From assembly GCA_010093815.1 (NCBI GenBank), contig ML996584.1: a DNA stretch of 64,000 bases; one strand, given 5' to 3'. Shown here one piece after another: positions 41,301 through 50,618 of the stretch (its first letter is position 1; each line of letters begins with the position of its first letter). The position numbers and the translations under genes are program-made. Source of the DNA: Pseudovirgaria hyperparasitica. Its lineage: Eukaryota. Below the pieces are notes generated by a model. The model was not told where the DNA came from. It did not search any database and worked only from the letters and a program-made list of their open reading frames with translations.

Positions 41301-42743
41301 ATAGTTCACAGTTTACAGTTCACAGGTTTACAGGTCACACAGTCCACAGTCCACAGTCCACAGTCCACAGCTTGTTAGACTCCGATAGAGTTCACGTCTG
41401 TGTGTCCGTCCTTGCTTACATTATCACTCGTAGATCACATCCTTTGATTAATACTCCGACGGCGGTGCAGTTTGCAGTTTACAGAGTGAGTGCTACTGCT
41501 GCTGTCTGAACTAATGGTCCGTTCAAAAGCCACCAACACAGCCGACGAGACGATGCCCTGCTATCATTGTGCTTCATCGCGCTCCATATTACCAACATGC
41601 TCATGCTGTCCTCCGACTCGTCTGTGACAAGCTCGTGGTGGCATTGGCCTGTCCTGTCTGTCCATGACGTAGAAGGCCATCCACCCATGCCCATGTGCCG
41701 AAACGCCTGCTGATCCTCCCAAGGTTGATTTCTATTTATGAAGTCGTCGCACAGCATTCTCGTCGTCGTCGTCTGCTGATCCGGAACCAGCACGCCAGCC
41801 AGCCGTGGGACAAAACGTCCATTCAGACGCTCCAGAAGGCTGGTCGATCGCCGGTACGTTATGATTGCGTTTATGTATTCCAGTTCCCGCATCCGGTTAG
41901 GCGTACCGTGGAGAGCGGACGACGTCCTATGCTTCTCACTCTCTCTCTCTCTCTCCCCACGATAGAACTCCACTTGACAACTCTTGCAGACCAGACTGAG
42001 CTGCTGCAGGGTAGTTAGGTGCACAGCTTTTGATGACTTGCGTGCGTGCGTGCGTGCGTGCGTGTGCGGCTCCGACTCCAGCTTGGGCTGTCACGCCTAC
42101 GTATGTATCGTCTTCTCACAAGCAGAAGAAGAAGCCTTGCCGTACCGCACCCAAGCAAGCCTCCCGCACGCCCCAGGGGGGGTTCTGTCTGTCTCTTCAA
42201 ACCGAGCATCCCGCATTCCCGTCCATCAGTCGATGCAGTATGGATGCAGTACCCTATGCACACACTCCAACGGTTCCCGCAGCCTCGTTCTTGACTCTGC
42301 TGAGTGCTGGCTGCTGGCTGCTGTCCATCTGTGAATGTGTCTATTTTGTACCGGCGGGCGGGGGCGCACGCACGCACCATCAGCTAGTAGCGTTCGTCGT
42401 CGTCGTCGTCGCTCGCTCGCTTTTCTGTCCAATCACCGCTCTTTTCCAATTCCCGCGTTGGGCTACGATCCTCTTTCTGGTTTTTTTTTTTGTTCTTGGT
42501 TAATTATGCAGATTGATTTCGACCATTTTGAAACAACATCTTTCCTGCGTGTGCTGCTGAGTCCTACTACTCCTCCCCTGGTCCTGGTCCCTGTCATTCA
42601 TTCCCCTATCCCCCCCGCCGAAAGACTAAAATAAAGGCCAATCATACATTCCCGTCATTTGTTGGAACTTTACCATCATCCATAGATGCTTTGAAATCAG
42701 GTATTCTGCTTTGTTGTTCGTTGTCGTTTGTCGTACACCACCA

Positions 42744-42949
<206 letters not shown>

Positions 42950-45399
42950 AATTACACCCTTAGCATCACTTCCTCTTCCGGTAATCCCGTCTCTGCGCCC
43001 GGTCTTTGGCATCTGGTGCTCGTATCCTCTTTCAGGTCCAGCTTGTTGCTGTCTGTCTATCTGTCTGTCTGCTGTCTGTCTATCCAACATCATCAATCTC
43101 CATCTCGCGCTCTCTCTTTCTCTCTCTTACTCTCGCGTCACTCCATGTACCCCTTACACCAACCATACCACGGCCGCTTTCTTCCATCGCACCCCCCCTA
43201 TCGGCCCGACTGCTTGCTGCTGCTGCTGCTTGCAGCTTTTGCTCGTCCGGCACCTCGGCCGTCGATCGATAATTAGTCAGTCTTCCTCCTCCCCCTAATA
43301 CCTCCTACTACCCCTTGGTTGCCAGTCTTTTCTAGAAATTTGTGGGAATCTGCTTTCCTTTCCGGGAAGTTTCACGGAACTAAATTTATCATTCATACAT
43401 ACCTACATACATACACACAGCCAGCTCTCTCGTCGAGATGTTCTAGTGTGGTGTGTTGTGGCGGGCTACTTTTACGCGCTGGTGGTGTGGTTGTGTGTCG
43501 TGTCGTGAGTTGTTGTTTGTGTATCGGTGTTGTTGTTATTTCTGAATGAAAGTAGGATTTGGATTTGAGAGATTTGGCTTGGCGGTGCTTGTGCTTGTCC
43601 GGCGAGTGATTTACTGGTTAGGGTATTTTGTCTGTTGATGGGGTTCGTAGACTGCTGTTGCTGTTGATGGAAGATTATGATGTGAGACTGCCTGCCTGGA
43701 TGGACGTACGTCTTTGTCTACCTACCTAGCTATCTAGCTATCTAGCTATGGATAGTAGATGCCTGCTATCAGGTTACGACTGCGTATGCACTCACCACAC
43801 AGCCAGCCTCTGCACCTCGCCTTTTCTAATTACAACAACAACAACACACATACATACATACAAACATACACCCTCTGCCCCCCAGCACACTCCCCTCTCT
43901 CACCCAAAACCCCCAAACCATCAAAATAGACCACTACCCCTCTGCACCCACACGCGCGGCTCCATCACCACCACCAACCACAGCGGTTCCTTCCCGCCGC
44001 CCACTCCCTTTCCCTCCCTCCACGCTTCCACGCGCCATGATGCAAGGGGCACAAAACAAAACCCCCCCTTTCCTTGGTTGGGGGCGGGGGCCAGGCACGA
44101 GTATGAATAAGTCTGTCGTTGTCGTTTTCAGACCCCATCGACCCCGCGAGGTATATATATTTGTTGTTGTTTTTTGGACCCTAGGCCCCCAGGATGTCTG
44201 TGTGTAGTGTTTGGGTAGCTAGTTGTCTGTCTGTCTATCTAGCTAGCCAGTTATCTGTCTATCTAGCTATCTATAGCGCGTAGTGCCGTATTGCGTATTG
44301 TCGTAGTACGCGTTGCATACAGCAGTGCTCTTGCCGCGCCCGCTAGGCAAGCGCTGGGGAGGGAATGGGCTTGCAGCGTCGTGCCCTTGCAGTCTGTTTC
44401 TGGGTCATTGGCATGGGAGGAGAGCGGTGTGGTTTGTTTGGGTATGAGTGTGTATGTGGTGGGAATTATATTGGGGATTATAATGGGGAGGGAGGTTGGG
44501 ATGAGGATTGGGATGAGAGGAATAGAATGAATTTTCGTTCTCTAATGCGGCTACTTGGCTTATGGGATGTGTTACTGGTTTGACATGAAAGGTTGAGTGG
44601 GAGTGGGAGTTGTGTATTTGCCGTGTGGGCGTGTGCTGGACTTTTATAGATAGATGGATGGATAGATACGTAGACGGATGGAAACCCGTACCACGCACTT
44701 TGGAGTTGTAACCTATAGGTAAATACGTACATACATACATTCAGATACTATGTTAACAACGCCACCACTACTCCCGTGCGCTATTCCTGTGCCGGTTCGC
44801 GCGTGTGCTTGCTTTTTTTGTCTCTATGTATGTACTATGCATATGCATATGATATACATAGGATATAGCTAGACATGCATATATAGTACCAAGACATTAG
44901 CCTCGGGACACGTCGCTGCCTGAACTGCGCCTGATTATATGCCTGATATGTTCCTAGATTGATGTGGCCTCATTGTACGTACTATGTATATGTATGTGTT
45001 TATGCATTCATATATACGATGTATGTATTTATATGCCATACGTATATACATGCTACATACCGCACGCGGAAGGATGTAGGGCAGGATGGATCAATCACAG
45101 TCAAGACAGGATCAGAGACACACTGGCTAATAACACATGATGCACAAGTAGAAAGTTGGGACAAGAGACCGTGAATGAAATTGTGTTTTTTGTCTTTTGT
45201 TGTGGTATGTTGGTTGCGTGATACTTGCATCCTATTCTGCGATTCATAGAGAAGATATTGTCTGAACAAGTCCTCTGTGCGATTTCTCGTGCTATTCTCT
45301 CTTACACCAGGCTTACAGGCCAAGGCCATACGTATACGCTGCCATGCCATGGCATATATCCAAAGAATCTCCCAATCCCTCCATCCACCACTCACTCAC

Positions 45400-48300
45400 T
45401 CACCCACTAACACTCACAAATCCCGCTGCAACGCCCTCAATCTCCCCCATCCTGCCCTTCTCCCGACCACCAACCCGCTCCCCAACCCACCCCCTCGCCT
45501 TCTCCACGACCAACTCCCAACTCTCCTCCAGATCCGCCAGCCGCCTCTCGCAGAACAGCACCACAACCATAGTCACAAATACCGCTATATCCTCCCCATC
45601 CAGTCCAGCCTTCTGTGCCCCGTGCTTGATGGCGGCATCGGTTGTGCCGAGGAGCTCGAAGAGCGCGGGAGAGGGGGTGAAGGAGCCGGTGTAGGTCTGG
45701 TGTGCGATAAGGGCTGCGAGGATGGTTTCGGGGGTCTGATGTGGTGGTGGTGGTGGTGCTTGGTTGTGGGCGGCGGGCGTTTCGTAGGAGCTCAATTGCG
45801 CGAGGTAGTTCGCTGTACGTTCCCTTGTAGGGGGTGGAGGAGGCACACTGCTAGAGACCTGGGATCCATAGTCGAGAGACGCAAACGAGCTTAGCGGCGC
45901 TTGTTCTGCATCTGATGCGACGTAGCTGGATGGGGTGAACGAGCGTGCGCAGAACGGGGATATGCTCGAGTAGCTGCGTGAGAACGAACTAGGTGACCTG
46001 CTGTATTGTGCCTGTTCCACTACTGGGGAATTGTTGGGCTCCTCTACCTCACACATCGCCTCCAAATCGCACGAGTCTGGATCTTCGACTTCTGCCAAAA
46101 AGGCTCCACGCACCCTCTCTGAGCCGCGGGAGAATTGGTTAGTAGGGGTCTCTATGTGAGGATAAGGGGGCCCGGGGCGCTTACTGCTTTGACGATTGAC
46201 AATGCTGAAGGCGGGTTCTCGTGAAGATGCCGCTTTGCGGGCCGCACGGCTTGCTAGCGCCATTCGAGGCGCCATGCAGCCTGATGGAGGGTAAGAAGGT
46301 GTTGTTTGTGGTGTGTGTTGTGTGGTACTGGGCCCTGCAAGGACGTCGAGGTCAGCATCGTCTTCGTCTGGGAGAGACATACACGCCGAGGATGACATAT
46401 CGCGCTGGTATTGTTCCAGGATGGCTTGGGGTATCATGAAGTGCATGGACTGGAGGGCTGGGGCAAGTTGGGTTTGCTCATGATCACGGTCCCGGGGTGT
46501 CGCGTGGGATCTTGTGTCCTTGGGCTCACACTCATCATCCTCGTCGTTCTCCTCCAAGGCCACGAAACTGCACCATTTGCCGCCGATCTGGAACTGTACC
46601 CCGAGACGGACAGCCTCGCGCTCTATCATCTCATCGTAGCGGCTCTCATAGTGCTCCTTGAGCGCCTTGCCAGAGTCCTGATGCTTGGCGACAGAGAGCC
46701 AGCCTCGGCCTTCTTCGAGCTCTTTGACTGCTTTCTTACACGCGAGTTGGTGGATGCTTTCTCCGGGCTCATTCAGGACTGAAATGGGGATCTCGAGTTC
46801 AAGCGGGCCGTGCTTTGAGGTGCCGCGTAAAACTACGGCTTTGGGTACTTTCTGGCAGGCTGATGGGGACATGAGTAGGTATACCGTGGTACGGTTGAAC
46901 GGGAAGAGAGGTGGGATGATTGACGGCGCCTGCAGGAGTTTTGGCGTCTCGAGAATCGGCAGATGAGAGAAGCGTGATTGGCCTGAAGGGTCGTCTTCGG
47001 GCTTAGGATCGTCTTTGTCCAAGTCCATTGTGTCATCGAACAGTGAGATGGCTTTCTATGTGCAATTTGTCAGTTCTCGAAACCGCGGAGAATACTACTT
47101 CGGAAGTACTTACACTCTCGGCTGCAGGTTTTTCTGCCTTGTCTAGCATCAGTTCGTCAAGCCTGACATGGAGTGAGTCTGCTACACGCTCGACGATCTC
47201 AAACTCTTCATCTCCAACATCCTTCTCCACGTCCTCATACTTGACCTCCAGGGTATAGTCTGTCACGTGCGGTGACAATGCACCCTTCAACATGCGGACA
47301 ACCTTACCATCTAGCTTCTCTTCGAGTCCAACAGCCTGGCAGAAGCCGTTGCCTGCTCGAGCAACACCTTCAATGAGAGAATGTGAAACGTCGTCCCCTA
47401 TGCCCAAGGTGAAAACTCGAATCGGCTGCTTCTGCTCACTGATCTGCTCGTTCAGGAATCTGAACAATGAGTCTTGATCCCAGATTTCACCATCTGTCAG
47501 CAACAAGATTTCCAGAGAAAGGTCTTTGTAACGACGCTGGACAGTCTCCTTGATAGGTGCCAGCATTTCGGTGCCGCCATAGTTGGCGCTGAAAACTTCG
47601 AGATGCTTGATGGCTTGATCAAGGGAGTCTTGGCTGTAGGCCTTGCTCTTGTCAAATAGGAAGCTGCACCGGTCTCCGAAAGAGCATATGTTAAATTTGA
47701 CACCAACCGGAAGTGATTTGACAAACACGCGCAACGCATCTGCTGTTTTCTTGATCTTGCCGCCTGCCATACTTCCACTCCGATCAACCACGAAGACTAC
47801 TTCTGGACGCTCAGACGGGAGCGAAAACTTTGGGACCAAGGTTGTCATCAAAGCTCTGTAGCCAGGCAGGGTCGGATGTCTCTCCAAGATGGCTCTAGGT
47901 GTACCGGTCTCTTTTGCGACTACTTGGAGGACAAAGTCTTTGTCAAGCTCCGCTGAACCAAGGCTGAGTGATGCTGAGGCAATGTGGTGCTGTGGGGCAG
48001 CATCGAGATCATGACTGGTTGTACCCATGTTGACTACGATGGGATGCGAAGGTGATCTAATCGACTTGATGTATGTTCCTTCTGCAACAGTAGCATCCAC
48101 GGTGATTTCGATACCACTCTTGGCTGTGATGTTTTCGGCACCAGGTGCGAGTGGGAACTCAGTTGACCCGTAACGTGGGGCAATGCTGGTAGGTATCGTA
48201 AAGCGGATACCATCGACTTCAGCATCATGTTTGAGTTCACCAAGATACGTGATTTCGACATTGATATGTGCACCAGCCGGAACATTCCCAACAGTTGTAG

Positions 48301-48715
48301 TAAAGACATCAGCGGCATCTGGCAGCTGCTCGAACAAGCCAGCCGTCTCACCTCTCTCAACGGCGTCTTTGTAATCTTTCCGTGCCCTCGCCTTCTCCTT
48401 GACGACCCCCCTGATGACCCGGTCGTTCACGTGACAAGTAAACCCAACAACGCTGACGCCATCGAACAGGGGGAAAGTGTAACGTATCTCGTCGATAGCG
48501 TTATCCTTGGGGTTGGCGAACTCCTGGGTCAGCACAGTCCGCGAGGTAGACGATATGATGTGTGTATACGCCTTTACATTGAGCTGAGGAAGATAGGAGC
48601 GTGTTGCCCAGCCACCATCGCTCGGGGTGAGGTAGTAAAATCCACAGCAGTGGTCGGAAGTGCCGTAATACCTATTGCTATAGGTTGGCCTGGCTGTCTG
48701 CTTGGTACGCGCCAT
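45400..48715 (-). CDS. VIT + von Willebrand factor A domain protein (VWA5A-like), ~1085 aa, with histone H3-tail-like segments
   Basis: VIT ('LTQEFANP..YTFPLFDGVSVVGF..GVVKEK'), vWA MIDAS DRSGS...GGT...LTDGE, C-terminal 'WELVVEKARGW'. Intron 47113-47056 (gtaagt..ctgac..tag) joins the two ORFs in frame. First ATG at 48715 (aacATGG). Confidence 0.92.
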
Positions 48716-50618
48716 GTTCAGTACTTGCAACCAATGGTCAGCACGACTGAGCACGATAGTTGATGTATCGAATCCCTCACAATGTTGACTTTGCGGTGTT
48801 TTGAAGCGAGTGGGGCTGTGCAAGCGGGTGATTTGGCCAGGTTCGGAAAATAAGGCTGAGTTTGATGAGATGACTCTGAGGAGATACCAAAATGGTGTTT
48901 GGGGTCTGAGTTGTTGTAGACTGGTGCATCAATGGAATAAAATGCGGGGAAGATGCGTATTTATCTTCGAGACCTCGTTGTTGCCTGCTGAGGAAGAGGT
49001 GCCTGGTAACAGTCTACAACACCAAGTGACCAATCAGAGCCACACTTGGCCATCCCAGAACGATGTAAGCCAGGCTTGATTAGGCATAAGAGTCATCATA
49101 GTCTTGCACTAGGCAGGATTTGGGTCCCGTCTCGCAATGGCCTAGTCGTGTAGACGTACGACGAAGGGAAGCCATGCCAGCCGTTTGGTCTTTACTGTTC
49201 ATAGCATAATCATGTCAAGATCCGGTTTCGATTTCACAGTTTGTCAAACATGAGCTGGCTGGTGAGGTTTTGGATCGTTTGCTTGCAAGCGAACTTGGCA
49301 CTGCAAGGCAATAAGGCAGCGATGTACCACGAGTGAAATCGCCTCCTTCTACTGGTGTCAACCTAGTTTGCACTGTATGGATTATGCTTGATGTTTTTTA
49401 TTGGTAAATGTAATGCGAAAAAGTTCTCTCGTCACCTGTCCAAAGTCGTCTGCAAAGCAAAGCGCTTTCGTATTCCTGTAGCCTGAACGAGCCGACATGT
49501 CACAATTTCTTGCGCTTCACCCTAGCTCTCTATCGTTTCTTCTCTCGCCCTAAGCTTACGAATCATAACAAGAAAACTTCCCTTTCACCAGCCTTCCGTG
49601 CATTTACGGACGCCCCTCCTCTCCATCGATCAAACTTCTGCTTTACCTGCATACACTAAACAGCCACCCCTGAGCCTCATACAGAATTCCCCAATTCACT
49701 ACTTAGTGTCTAGAGTTCCGTCTAGCATGGGACTCCCTATAATATGATGTTGTCTAGAGATGGTGCGTCTCCTTGGCGTGTGCTGGACACGGAGATAATA
49801 CGCTCGAGCGATGAAGCACGGTGAACAGGTGGAAGTAGGTACTGTACGAAGTGGATGCGGATGTGTCCTAATAGTGTAGATGCAGAATGTAGAACCTACA
49901 TAAGCCAGATCACTGTTTGCTTATAGTTCGAGGGTAGTGTAGGAGGGCATGCTGTTGCCCGTGTCCTGCTTAATGCCTGTACCACGATGTGGCTCCGGCC
50001 AATGAGTTACACATACAAATGCTAGGGGTACAAGCCTAGGTATGGTCTTATCGCCAACAACGTTTGTTGCGCAAACAAAGACTATGACAAGGTCTGGCAG
50101 CTGGGGTGAAATAAGGGTGTTAGACTGTTGCATCTGGGGTGAACCTAGCGATCGCCGTAGCGTAAGCTTGCGTACAACTGTTACAGTTCTGATCGATCAC
50201 TCTAGATATAAATGAGACATTGTGAGCTATGGATAGGTAATTTCTGAGCGTGGGGCTAAGAACTGCTCTTAGCTTCCTAGGGAATCTCTAGCCATTTCAG
50301 TGAGGCCTAGCGACTTATTAGAAAAACTTGCTAGCACAGTATCAAGTACGGTTATGATGAATCTTGGCTGAGCAGTCCGATTGTGTACGAATCATATGTA
50401 AAATGTAGCATAGCTTGATGTAACTTGTAGATGCGGACGCCATGCTATTTGAGCTCTCCATTTATATATCATCGTATACATCAATTTACTCTTCAATATC
50501 TGCAACTACAAGTTCTAACACTCATGGGAAGTCATCTTTGTGTCGTGCCCGTAATTGATCAAGCCACAAGTCCCAAAAGACTGTTCCCAGAATAATCTAT
50601 CTAATCATCAGAAATCTC

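Follow-up and report, generated by a model that had tools for sequence, protein, structure and literature searches.

A histone H3 tail copy within a disordered linker of a fungal VIT-vWA protein, and its recurrence among relatives

Introduction

Histone mimicry is, to our knowledge, known from a few short motifs, mostly viral, and from a handful of human proteins. SARS-CoV-2 ORF8 and influenza NS1 are short viral histone mimics, Codanin-1 sequesters ASF1 through an H3-mimic helix, and the H3 K27M oncohistone and EZHIP are histone-tail inhibitors of SET enzymes in which a lysine is changed to methionine (K-to-M). This article deals with a VIT-vWA protein of the VWA5A type from the fungus Pseudovirgaria hyperparasitica, encoded on the minus strand of a 64,000-nucleotide stretch of contig ML996584.1 (assembly GCA_010093815.1; the whole stretch is called the window below). 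This protein resembles the tail of histone H3 at two places, its N-terminus and a disordered linker. The likeness to the viral mimics and to Codanin-1 would lie in the imitation of a piece of H3 to capture an H3-binding factor, with Codanin-1 as a cellular precedent for sequestration. The difference lies in extent: those mimics are motifs of 4-6 residues or a fold element, whereas up to ~35 consecutive tail residues are found here, in a conserved cellular family and beside other borrowed tails.

A second group of described mimics, the H3 tail mimics (H3TMs) such as VRK1, are non-histone proteins whose N-terminus imitates H3 (R2, K4) after Met removal and is bound by PHD and Tudor readers (PMC8166343). 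The MARTKQTAR start of the window protein fits their sequence rules (Met followed by a small removable residue, Arg 2, Lys 4), Met being presumably removed. H3TMs mimic the first few residues only (PMC8166343), whereas the window protein also has an internal H3 11-31 segment, extending up to 2-40 in relatives, with eroded lysines.

The protein family itself is described for Dictyostelium Vwa1 and human VWA5A (BCSC-1), which consist of a VIT domain, a vWA domain flanked by hybrid-type parts, a helical/VITpt2 region, a 'less conserved stretch' and a C-terminal domain (CTD) of ~100 aa (PMC10539598). Fungal members fall in the same clade, a signal peptide is absent, the known partner of Vwa1 is a WD40 F-box protein, and the variable region is called 'more heterogeneous' (PMC10539598). 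The window protein has the same architecture, CTD after the variable stretch included. In the portion of the Vwa1 article considered here, histones have 0 occurrences and no borrowed tails are mentioned in the variable stretch (PMC10539598). The VWA5A interactome study gives a nuclear and cytoplasmic localisation, and the word 'histone' does not occur in the part of its text considered (PMC12540739). Our literature search found no description of H3, Ran or ribosomal P-protein tail copies in VIT-vWA proteins, the supplements of PMC10539598 (alignments S4 and S5) being a place where such segments might show.

Results

A segment of the linker matches the H3 tail

A first interpretation of the window, made from its letters and open reading frames (ORFs) and called here the sequence-only reading, had singled out an 18-residue segment, GCMAPRMALASRAARKAA, as a second piece of H3 tail in this protein. 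The segment lies at 46228-46281 on the minus strand (aa 793-810). Translation of this strand and alignment to H3, for which the true fungal H3 tail contained in the gene-model fusion P0283 served as reference, confirmed the details it had given: 12/18 identities to H3 12-29, M at K14 and K18, R at K23, and an AARK motif that is kept. The alignment covers H3 11-31 in all (SGCMAPRMALASRAARKAASS, Table 1). Replacements are K14M, K18M, Q19A, K23R, S28A and P30S; R17, L20, A21, S22, A24, A25, R26, K27 and A29 are kept. The likeness stops at about H3 residue 31, and on the other side the linker stretch equivalent to H3 2-10, TPQTTPSYPPS, is barely recognisable. The 551-aa second ORF matched no Pfam family at E<=0.01, so no histone fold (PF00125) follows the tail copy. 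The segment is exonic, the nearest intron starting 43 nt downstream, and spliced contigs of two runs (see below) run through it, which rules out its removal by splicing, one of the outcomes that the sequence-only reading had named as fatal to its proposal.

That reading had also held chance to be unlikely and had pointed to shuffled sequence as the test. Similar scores did not arise there, as no shuffle of any kind reached the H3 match. Neither 12 identities nor the BLOSUM score was reached in 20,000 shuffles of the whole protein, and the observed match was found in 0/50,000 shuffles of the 226-aa disordered region and in 0/100,000 shuffles each of local windows of 80, 50 and 28 aa. Shuffling in 30-residue blocks gave 0/2,800 at score 57 among 280 family members (maximum 56) and 0/5,000 for this protein (maximum 50). 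When 50 aa around the motif were compared by phmmer with 177,635 PDB sequences, 13 of the 14 matches at E<=10 came from H3, as chains or as peptides (one bore the label Cse4); taken by itself, the best E of 0.48 falls short of significance, and the per-sequence conditional E is ~3e-6. A null made of reversed sequences (maximum 60) was discarded, because its top scorers were H3-copy carriers and H3 21-29 is nearly palindromic.

The protein thus described begins with an exact copy of H3 1-8. As the sequence-only reading had noted, the two pieces (ARTKQTAR, aa 2-9, and the linker copy, aa 793-810) stand about 790 residues apart and in H3 order.

H3 copies recur in relatives

The sequence-only reading had proposed to search VIT-vWA relatives for the motif and to map it on a phylogeny. 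We gathered 265 relatives in two motif-independent searches, one by the second ORF and one by the VIT-vWA exon (the family counting 14,826 members at E<=0.001), and found copies in 21 of them at a local score of at least 52 against H3 1-40, where a block-shuffle null predicts 0.3; on a tree with 33 carriers (see below), the feature is weakly clustered. At lower thresholds the counts were 29/265 for a score of at least 45 (2.6 expected) and 47/265 for at least 40 (13 expected). All H3-like copies sit in the variable stretch that follows the mid domain and precedes the CTD. Their quality differs widely: the linker of P0243 is identical to H3 12-29 at 18/18 positions, contiguous H3 2-36 is present in the linkers of P0258 (near-perfect), P0281 and P0273, the copies of P0281 and of P0293 from Trichoderma are well preserved, and P0208 has several tandem H3-like units. 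No VIT-vWA copy passes ~H3 residue 40, so only the tail was copied.

The copies can also be recognised without H3 as a guide. In the best linker-to-linker alignments, both H3-like sites coincided in 26/35 pairs formed by this protein and carriers. P0150 reads APRKALASRAARMSP where the window protein reads APRMALASRAARKAA; the derived residues A19 and R23 are common to both, a sign that these copies go back to one ancestral copy. These two proteins belong to the same 15-member clade (support 53) of a FastTree phylogeny that was built from 277 VIT-vWA domains, the N-terminal 25 residues being left out, and that mixes orthologs and paralogs. We read the weak clustering of carriers on this tree, together with the continuum of intermediate scores, as signs that the H3 copy would be an old element, often decaying.

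H3-like N-termini, defined by at least 7/12 identities with H3 1-12 after Met, recur too: 4 of the 238 relatives with a complete N-terminus have one (P0208, the window protein, P0117 and P0143), against 1/47,600 in the null. Seven relatives, in distant branches, reach at least 4 identities. N-terminal and linker copies tend to occur together (3/7 versus 16/231, p 0.012; excluding the window protein 2/6, p 0.068). The sequence-only reading had seen in the two pieces a single H3 tail that was split. Two H3 pieces in H3 order are indeed present, but relatives carry contiguous H3 2-36 in the linker, and therefore the N-terminal and linker copies are separate modules. By comparison with these relatives, the linker copy of the window protein looks decayed at its beginning.

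The copies lose their lysines and keep a core

Whether the motif is better conserved than the surrounding linker had been raised by the sequence-only reading, and the answer is mixed: it is better conserved in three comparisons, given here, and no better in two others, given in the Discussion. Between the window protein and P0150, the copy is 54% identical and the remaining linker 13% (p 3e-6). In a five-member clade in which all are carriers (clade 1), the values are 50% and 31% (p 4e-11), and in a Trichoderma pair (clade 3) 86% and 55% (p 4e-4).

The best-conserved H3 positions in carriers (~80-95%) are R8, R17, L20, A21, S22, A24, A25 and P30. Eight positions are conserved at >=80% in unselected carriers, and six of these are retained by the window copy, namely R17, L20, A21, S22, A24 and A25. 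The lysines are the least conserved: among 21 unselected carriers, K14 is kept in 27%, K9 in 29%, K23 in 38%, K18 in 48% and K27 in 50%. With the window protein set aside, the remaining 20 unselected carriers are identical to H3 at 35/107 lysines (33%) and at 293/428 other positions (68%, p 2e-11). In the same 20 carriers, K4/9/14/18/23/27 are kept in 35/93 cases and R2/8/17/26 in 51/57 (p 1e-10), and Met accounts for 9/72 replacements at lysines versus 4/135 elsewhere (p 0.013). Over all 36 tabulated carriers, Met makes up 15/115 lysine replacements versus 4/200 elsewhere, R (31), A (16) and Q (11) being other common lysine replacements. Among carriers, K9M, K14M, K18M, K23M and K27M are all present. 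The lysine loss and the Met trend repeat in the 15 probe-found VIT-vWA carriers, and again in 31 carriers outside both the VIT-vWA and the histone-fold proteins.

Linker composition does not explain the lysine loss or the Met gain, since the linkers are only mildly Lys-poor (3.6% Lys versus 6.0% in folded parts) and contain 2.3% Met. In the window protein, the linker counted over aa 700-953 (254 aa) has 3 Lys, 16 Arg and 7 Met, and one of the Lys is the K27 equivalent. These alignments show that the arginines and the core R17-P30 (PR.QLAS.AAR.SAP) are kept, whereas replacement falls preferentially on the lysines, with Met as a frequent substitute. The remark of the sequence-only reading on K-to-M changes is thus borne out family-wide, by a lysine-specific loss and a Met enrichment in unselected carriers.

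Other tails are borrowed in the same linkers

Sequence comparison shows that tails of Ran and of ribosomal P-proteins have been copied into these linkers as well. In the window protein, a stretch of the linker upstream of the H3 copy (APALQ...LPDEDDADL, Table 1) corresponds to yeast Gsp1 181-219, 39 residues down to the last of the chain (phmmer on PDB, E 2.5e-4; Ran in 18/20 matches). With this segment as a probe and a threshold at or above the 99.9th percentile of the null, Ran-tail copies were detected in 23/264 relatives. The copy of P0112 matches Gsp1 with E 6.4e-7, all 24 matches being Ran. Ran-like and H3-like copies are seldom together (1/23 Ran-copy carriers). A survey of long proteins with the Ran tail was insensitive, and its 6 matches among 10 candidates, all Fusarium VIT-vWA orthologs, are uninformative on other families.

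P-protein tail copies, of the DDEDMGFGLFD type, are found in linkers of P0117, P0120, P0124, P0167, P0233 and P0255, for example. The acidic-MGFGLFD-type motif occurs in the linker of 11/265 relatives, and none was found in reversed sequences or folded parts. For P0117 (motif at ~aa 1212), 22/22 PDB matches were the C-terminal ends of ribosomal P0/P1/P2 (best E 0.07), and in P0255 aa 1478-1517 match the last 41 positions of Pfam Ribosomal_60s. In P0154, the Ran-tail copy leads directly into a P-protein-type motif.

Pfam adds further pieces: synaptobrevin in the linkers of P0008 and P0036 and NF-YA in that of P0062, all above the curated cut-off, Rpb1 C-terminal repeats (weak), and an RA domain in P0117. 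The relatives with synaptobrevin, NF-YA, Rpb1-repeat or RA matches in the linker are P0008, P0036, P0025, P0102, P0062, P0011, P0087 and P0117. FG repeats, positioned in linkers, are the commonest extra Pfam family in relatives (17/120 in a precomputed list). In the distal linker of the window protein, aa 903-942 are suggestive of a segment borrowed from Med7; residues 2-42 of this protein were the sole PDB match there (E 0.5).

Several other islands recur in the linkers. RY.AMSNLVLQAD.R (P0244, P0059, P0225, P0171 and P0021) has a sole and marginal PDB match, SNRNP200/Brr2 10-42 (E 0.75). Others are DFDFDSFL, WEWLEDE, ERGERLDSL and IHRITAKTD...RLDRIG. The idea that the island IHRITAKTDTVDD...RLDRIG is a SNARE tail of the SNAP-25/Sec9 type was dropped, as the island gave 0 PDB matches. 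Single-linkage clustering merged the islands into a single giant cluster and helped little.

H3 tails on other long proteins

Long proteins were surveyed with the P0258 copy as a probe, the range being set to 630-2008 aa, which leaves out true histones. There were 56 matches at E<=10 among 87 candidates: 16 VIT-vWA proteins, 3 vWA+U-box proteins, 9 gene models with a true histone fold, which are probably fused annotations, and 28 others. The three vWA+U-box proteins, P0307, P0309 and P0316, come from protists and have H3 1-26/28 at the N-terminus; the fungal AAA+ protein P0319 (DUF7025+AAA) begins with H3 1-22. K14M is present in two of these vWA+U-box or AAA+ proteins beginning with an H3 tail. 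The SET-domain protein P0288 has an internal H3 1-32. Four Willaertia proteins (P0300, P0302, P0306 and P0314) have N-terminal copies that run from H3 1-23 to 1-29; these differ in their N-terminal place and in their architectures from the fungal copies, most of which lie inside the chain and have eroded lysines. P0319, P0288 and the four Willaertia proteins are counted among the 28 others.

About 18 fungal proteins without a Pfam domain form a further set within the 28 others (P0266-P0270, P0274, P0275, P0277-P0279, P0285, P0286, P0289, P0296, P0299, P0301, P0305 and P0308). Fourteen measure 930-1025 aa, the other four being shorter, and their H3-like stretch ends in SAPS at ~aa 403-476. In two related proteins, the H3-like stretch is directly followed by sub-threshold reverse-transcriptase (RVT_1) matches.

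Gene, transcript and protein architecture

The gene model (Table 1) was assembled from ORFs, splice signals and joints in spliced contigs of two public runs (X1 and X2) of one study. The two introns of the coding region, 47113-47056 (58 nt) and 46184-46119 (66 nt), and the leader intron are all GT..AG on the minus strand. As all three are absent from the run contigs, these are read as transcript-derived; they report the presence of a spliced transcript only and are silent on its level. The 1063-aa product is identical to the public annotation P0001, a P. hyperparasitica hypothetical protein, with both the MARTKQTAR start and the motif present. MARTKQTAR is the N-terminus of the ORF, because the spliced leader has a stop codon in the same frame and lacks any upstream ATG in that frame; the start ATG has A at -3 and G at +4. 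In the 5′ leader (48716-48940, minus strand) there is one out-of-frame upstream ATG, opening a 64-codon upstream ORF that overlaps the main start and could damp translation of the VIT-vWA ORF.

Table 1. Features of the VIT-vWA gene and its product in the window.
Feature	Position	Strand	Remarks
VIT-vWA (VWA5A-like) coding region	45400..48715	minus	exons 48715-47114, 47055-46185, 46118-45400 (stop included); 1063 aa
Leader intron	48724..48780	minus	57 nt; 8 nt 5′ of ATG; contig joint 48723>48781
N-terminal H3 1-8 copy (ARTKQTAR), aa 2-9	48689..48712	minus	8/8 versus H3; directly after Met
VIT domain, aa 46-157	48245..48580	minus	Pfam PF08487, E 3.6e-36; confident in AlphaFold2 (AF2) model
vWA domain, aa 305-460	47336..47803	minus	Pfam PF13768 (VWA_3), E 3e-30
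MIDAS motif DRSGS, aa 311-315, intact	47771-47785	minus	D311, S313, S315 invariant in 100 aligned relatives
Disordered linker, aa 709-941	45769..46533	minus	between conserved mid domain and C-terminal domain; AF2
Ran GTPase C-terminal tail copy, aa 732-770	46348..46464	minus	22 aa upstream of H3 copy
H3 11-31 linker copy, aa 792-812	46222..46284	minus	alignment to H3, score 57
Candidate Med7 N-terminus-like segment, aa 903-942	45766..45885	minus	Med7 residues 2-42
Helical C-terminal domain (CTD), aa 954-1063	45403..45732	minus	Q965, F967, G969, W971 near-invariant; AF2

The full-length AF2 model, computed from a 100-sequence alignment, has a mean predicted local distance difference test score (pLDDT) of 77 and a predicted template modelling score (pTM) of 0.75. 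The VIT-vWA body is confident to ~aa 705. In the linker, pLDDT falls below 50 at aa 709-747 and 753-941, and the sole linker helix (744-757) falls inside the Ran-tail copy. Folded by itself, the CTD reaches a pLDDT of 89. Its top structural match in VIA-align is a C-terminal domain of a T. brucei axonemal protein (Z 12.1, root-mean-square deviation 2.7, 111 aligned), and it also resembles PARP4 1570-1708 bound in the vault cage (Z 7.0) and pieces of complement thioester domains, both Z values being within the range usual for helical models. A Foldseek search with the CTD gave no match at E<=0.001. At most, these predicted resemblances suggest that the CTD may be a docking-type domain.

The neighbouring genes (alcohol dehydrogenase, DUF7730, fungal transcription factor, family-2 peroxidase, MFS transporter) give no functional context. 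At ~42630-42951, long trinucleotide-repeat tracts, reading poly-Y/T/L/S according to frame, flank an N run (280 N in the window), which is probably an assembly gap in a microsatellite.

Discussion

The linker of this VIT-vWA protein contains a real copy of the H3 tail, expressed and beyond chance, and such copies are a recurrent feature of the family, ranging from perfect H3 tails to faint remnants. What the copy does has to be reasoned from its pattern of conservation. We lean, with some reserve, towards the view that the segment is an inherited and selected, although worn, copy of H3 ~11-31, displayed on the linker of an intracellular VIT-vWA scaffold (VWA5A/Vwa1 family) as a lysine-poor stand-in, that is, a decoy ligand. 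Such a copy would offer a lysine-independent recognition surface to a factor that binds or cuts H3 tails, and would itself escape being a substrate of the cell's own lysine-modifying enzymes. The VIT-vWA body, with its intact MIDAS, and the putative docking-type domain at the C-terminus would convert this contact into sequestration, recruitment or signalling. The N-terminus, with its perfect ARTKQTAR, would be a second, separate H3 module, of the kind needed by PHD-type readers. The partner may be the cell's own or foreign.

Several observations weigh against the selected decoy ligand. The copy is degenerate, and the four nearest relatives are without a copy (scores 24-30). Carriers are scattered: placing 33 of them takes 26 changes, as compared with 31.7+-1.2 for shuffled labels (26 or fewer in 2/2,000), and this tree does not distinguish between descent with many losses and gain on several occasions. 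In the Clonostachys trio (clade 2) the copy is 66% identical and the remaining linker 71%, and in P0117/P0130 the values are 44% and 41%, neither difference being significant. The Fisher tests count cells of related proteins, which means that their p-values overstate independence, and 15 of the 36 tabulated carriers had been picked with an H3-like probe. Finally, the pLDDT of ~30 at the motif means that the AF2 model shows no docking of it within the protein, and fold searches gave no known signalling or killing fold for the CTD.

Other explanations have to be weighed against these data. A chance resemblance in an Ala/Arg/Ser-rich low-complexity stretch, to which the Ala and Arg content of the region and the modest PDB-wide E would lend themselves, can practically be dismissed: shuffles never reached the observed score, the motif recurs in relatives up to full identity, linker-to-linker alignments made without H3 as a guide contradict it too, and the same protein begins with exact H3 1-8. 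A more serious contender, though still a rather unlikely one in our view, is that an ancestral full H3-tail copy is eroding here without function, any function being left to the better-preserved copies of other fungi. The 12/18 identity, the barely recognisable H3 2-10 region, the nearest relatives without a copy and the continuum of intermediate scores in the family are all what such a relic would leave. It would not be expected, however, that the remainder is the family's best-conserved core, that replacement has fallen mainly on lysines, as it has in intact copies, that the segment stands out as an island of identity with P0150 against a far more divergent linker, or that the N-terminal ARTKQTAR is perfect.

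Two functional alternatives are less probable again. In one, which we consider improbable, the copy is a pseudo-substrate inhibitor in which Met at lysine sites plugs a SET methyltransferase such as PRC2, or an acetyltransferase. The likeness to H3 K27M and EZHIP is that of an H3-like peptide with Met at a lysine position on a non-histone protein, and it is in keeping with the Met enrichment at lysine positions across carriers and with the occurrence there of K9M, K14M, K18M, K23M and K27M. The difference is that K27 is kept here and Met found only at K14 and K18, while in the family Met appears at any of five lysines and Arg, Ala and Gln are as common. We know of no SET enzyme that targets K14 or K18, and where such an inhibitor would have Met or Ile in place of the lysine of an ARKS-type site, the segment reads AARKAA. 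A specific role with PRC2, suggested by the sequence-only reading, is not upheld, since K27 is retained and the replaced lysines differ between carriers. All lysines erode and none is consistently Met, which points to lysine-independent recognition rather than to one enzyme. The other alternative, hardly more probable than the inhibitor, is a nuclear-transport hub, where the H3 copy would act as a karyopherin signal and tie the scaffold, with the Ran tail and FG repeats, to the Ran/karyopherin system. The H3 tail acts as an import signal and the Ran C-tail is a ligand of Ran-binding domains, and here a Ran-tail copy lies just upstream of the H3 copy and FG repeats are frequent in relatives. 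Karyopherins, however, need K14 and K23 to bind the H3 tail, and in carriers these two belong to the most poorly conserved residues; a Ran-like copy is seldom accompanied by an H3-like one; and the P-protein, synaptobrevin and Rpb1-repeat copies are off this theme.

A bolder extension of the decoy ligand, to which we give a minority chance, is that the linkers are bait displays. In such a display, the H3 copy would be ignored by the cell's own lysine-directed enzymes and would catch a foreign protein, of viral or bacterial origin or from a rival fungus, that binds or clips H3 tails. Its capture would be signalled via the VIT-vWA body, or by severing of the linker from its C-terminal anchor. 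The system would be a new fungal form of decoy surveillance. As handles on display, the H3, Ran C-terminal and P-protein tails count as established, Pfam points to synaptobrevin, NF-YA, FG repeats and RNA polymerase II repeats, and the Brr2 and Med7 ends are possible. The diversity of these pieces fits bait display better than a single pathway. The sequence-only reading had offered bait for histone-targeting enzymes as an alternative, and this option receives indirect support from the Ran, P-protein and other copies that sequence comparison places in the same linkers. Plant NLR integrated decoys and the protease 'tripwire' linkers of NLRP1 are precedents of host sensors that carry copies of pathogen targets in variable regions. 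Here, too, copies of conserved host proteins (H3, Ran and P-protein tails, synaptobrevin/NF-YA pieces) stand in a variable region, and the copied pieces turn over fast. The difference is that the window protein has no NLR-type NTPase, and that its CTD resembles, in the predicted structure, a docking rather than an execution domain. If bait display is true, the H3 tails on vWA+U-box, AAA+ and reverse-transcriptase-like proteins would be parallel cases.

The present case is that of a widespread eukaryotic scaffold family with long, sometimes perfect, H3 tails in a disordered linker. The kept arginines and small residues, together with the lost lysines, often changed to Met, indicate which features of the tail are read by a partner. 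The Ran and P-protein tails in the same linkers suggest a general principle, in which borrowed tails serve as baits or docking sites. This gives an entry point to the function of VWA5A-type proteins, a group that has a human tumour-suppressor candidate among its members and to which PARP4, a vault component, is related.

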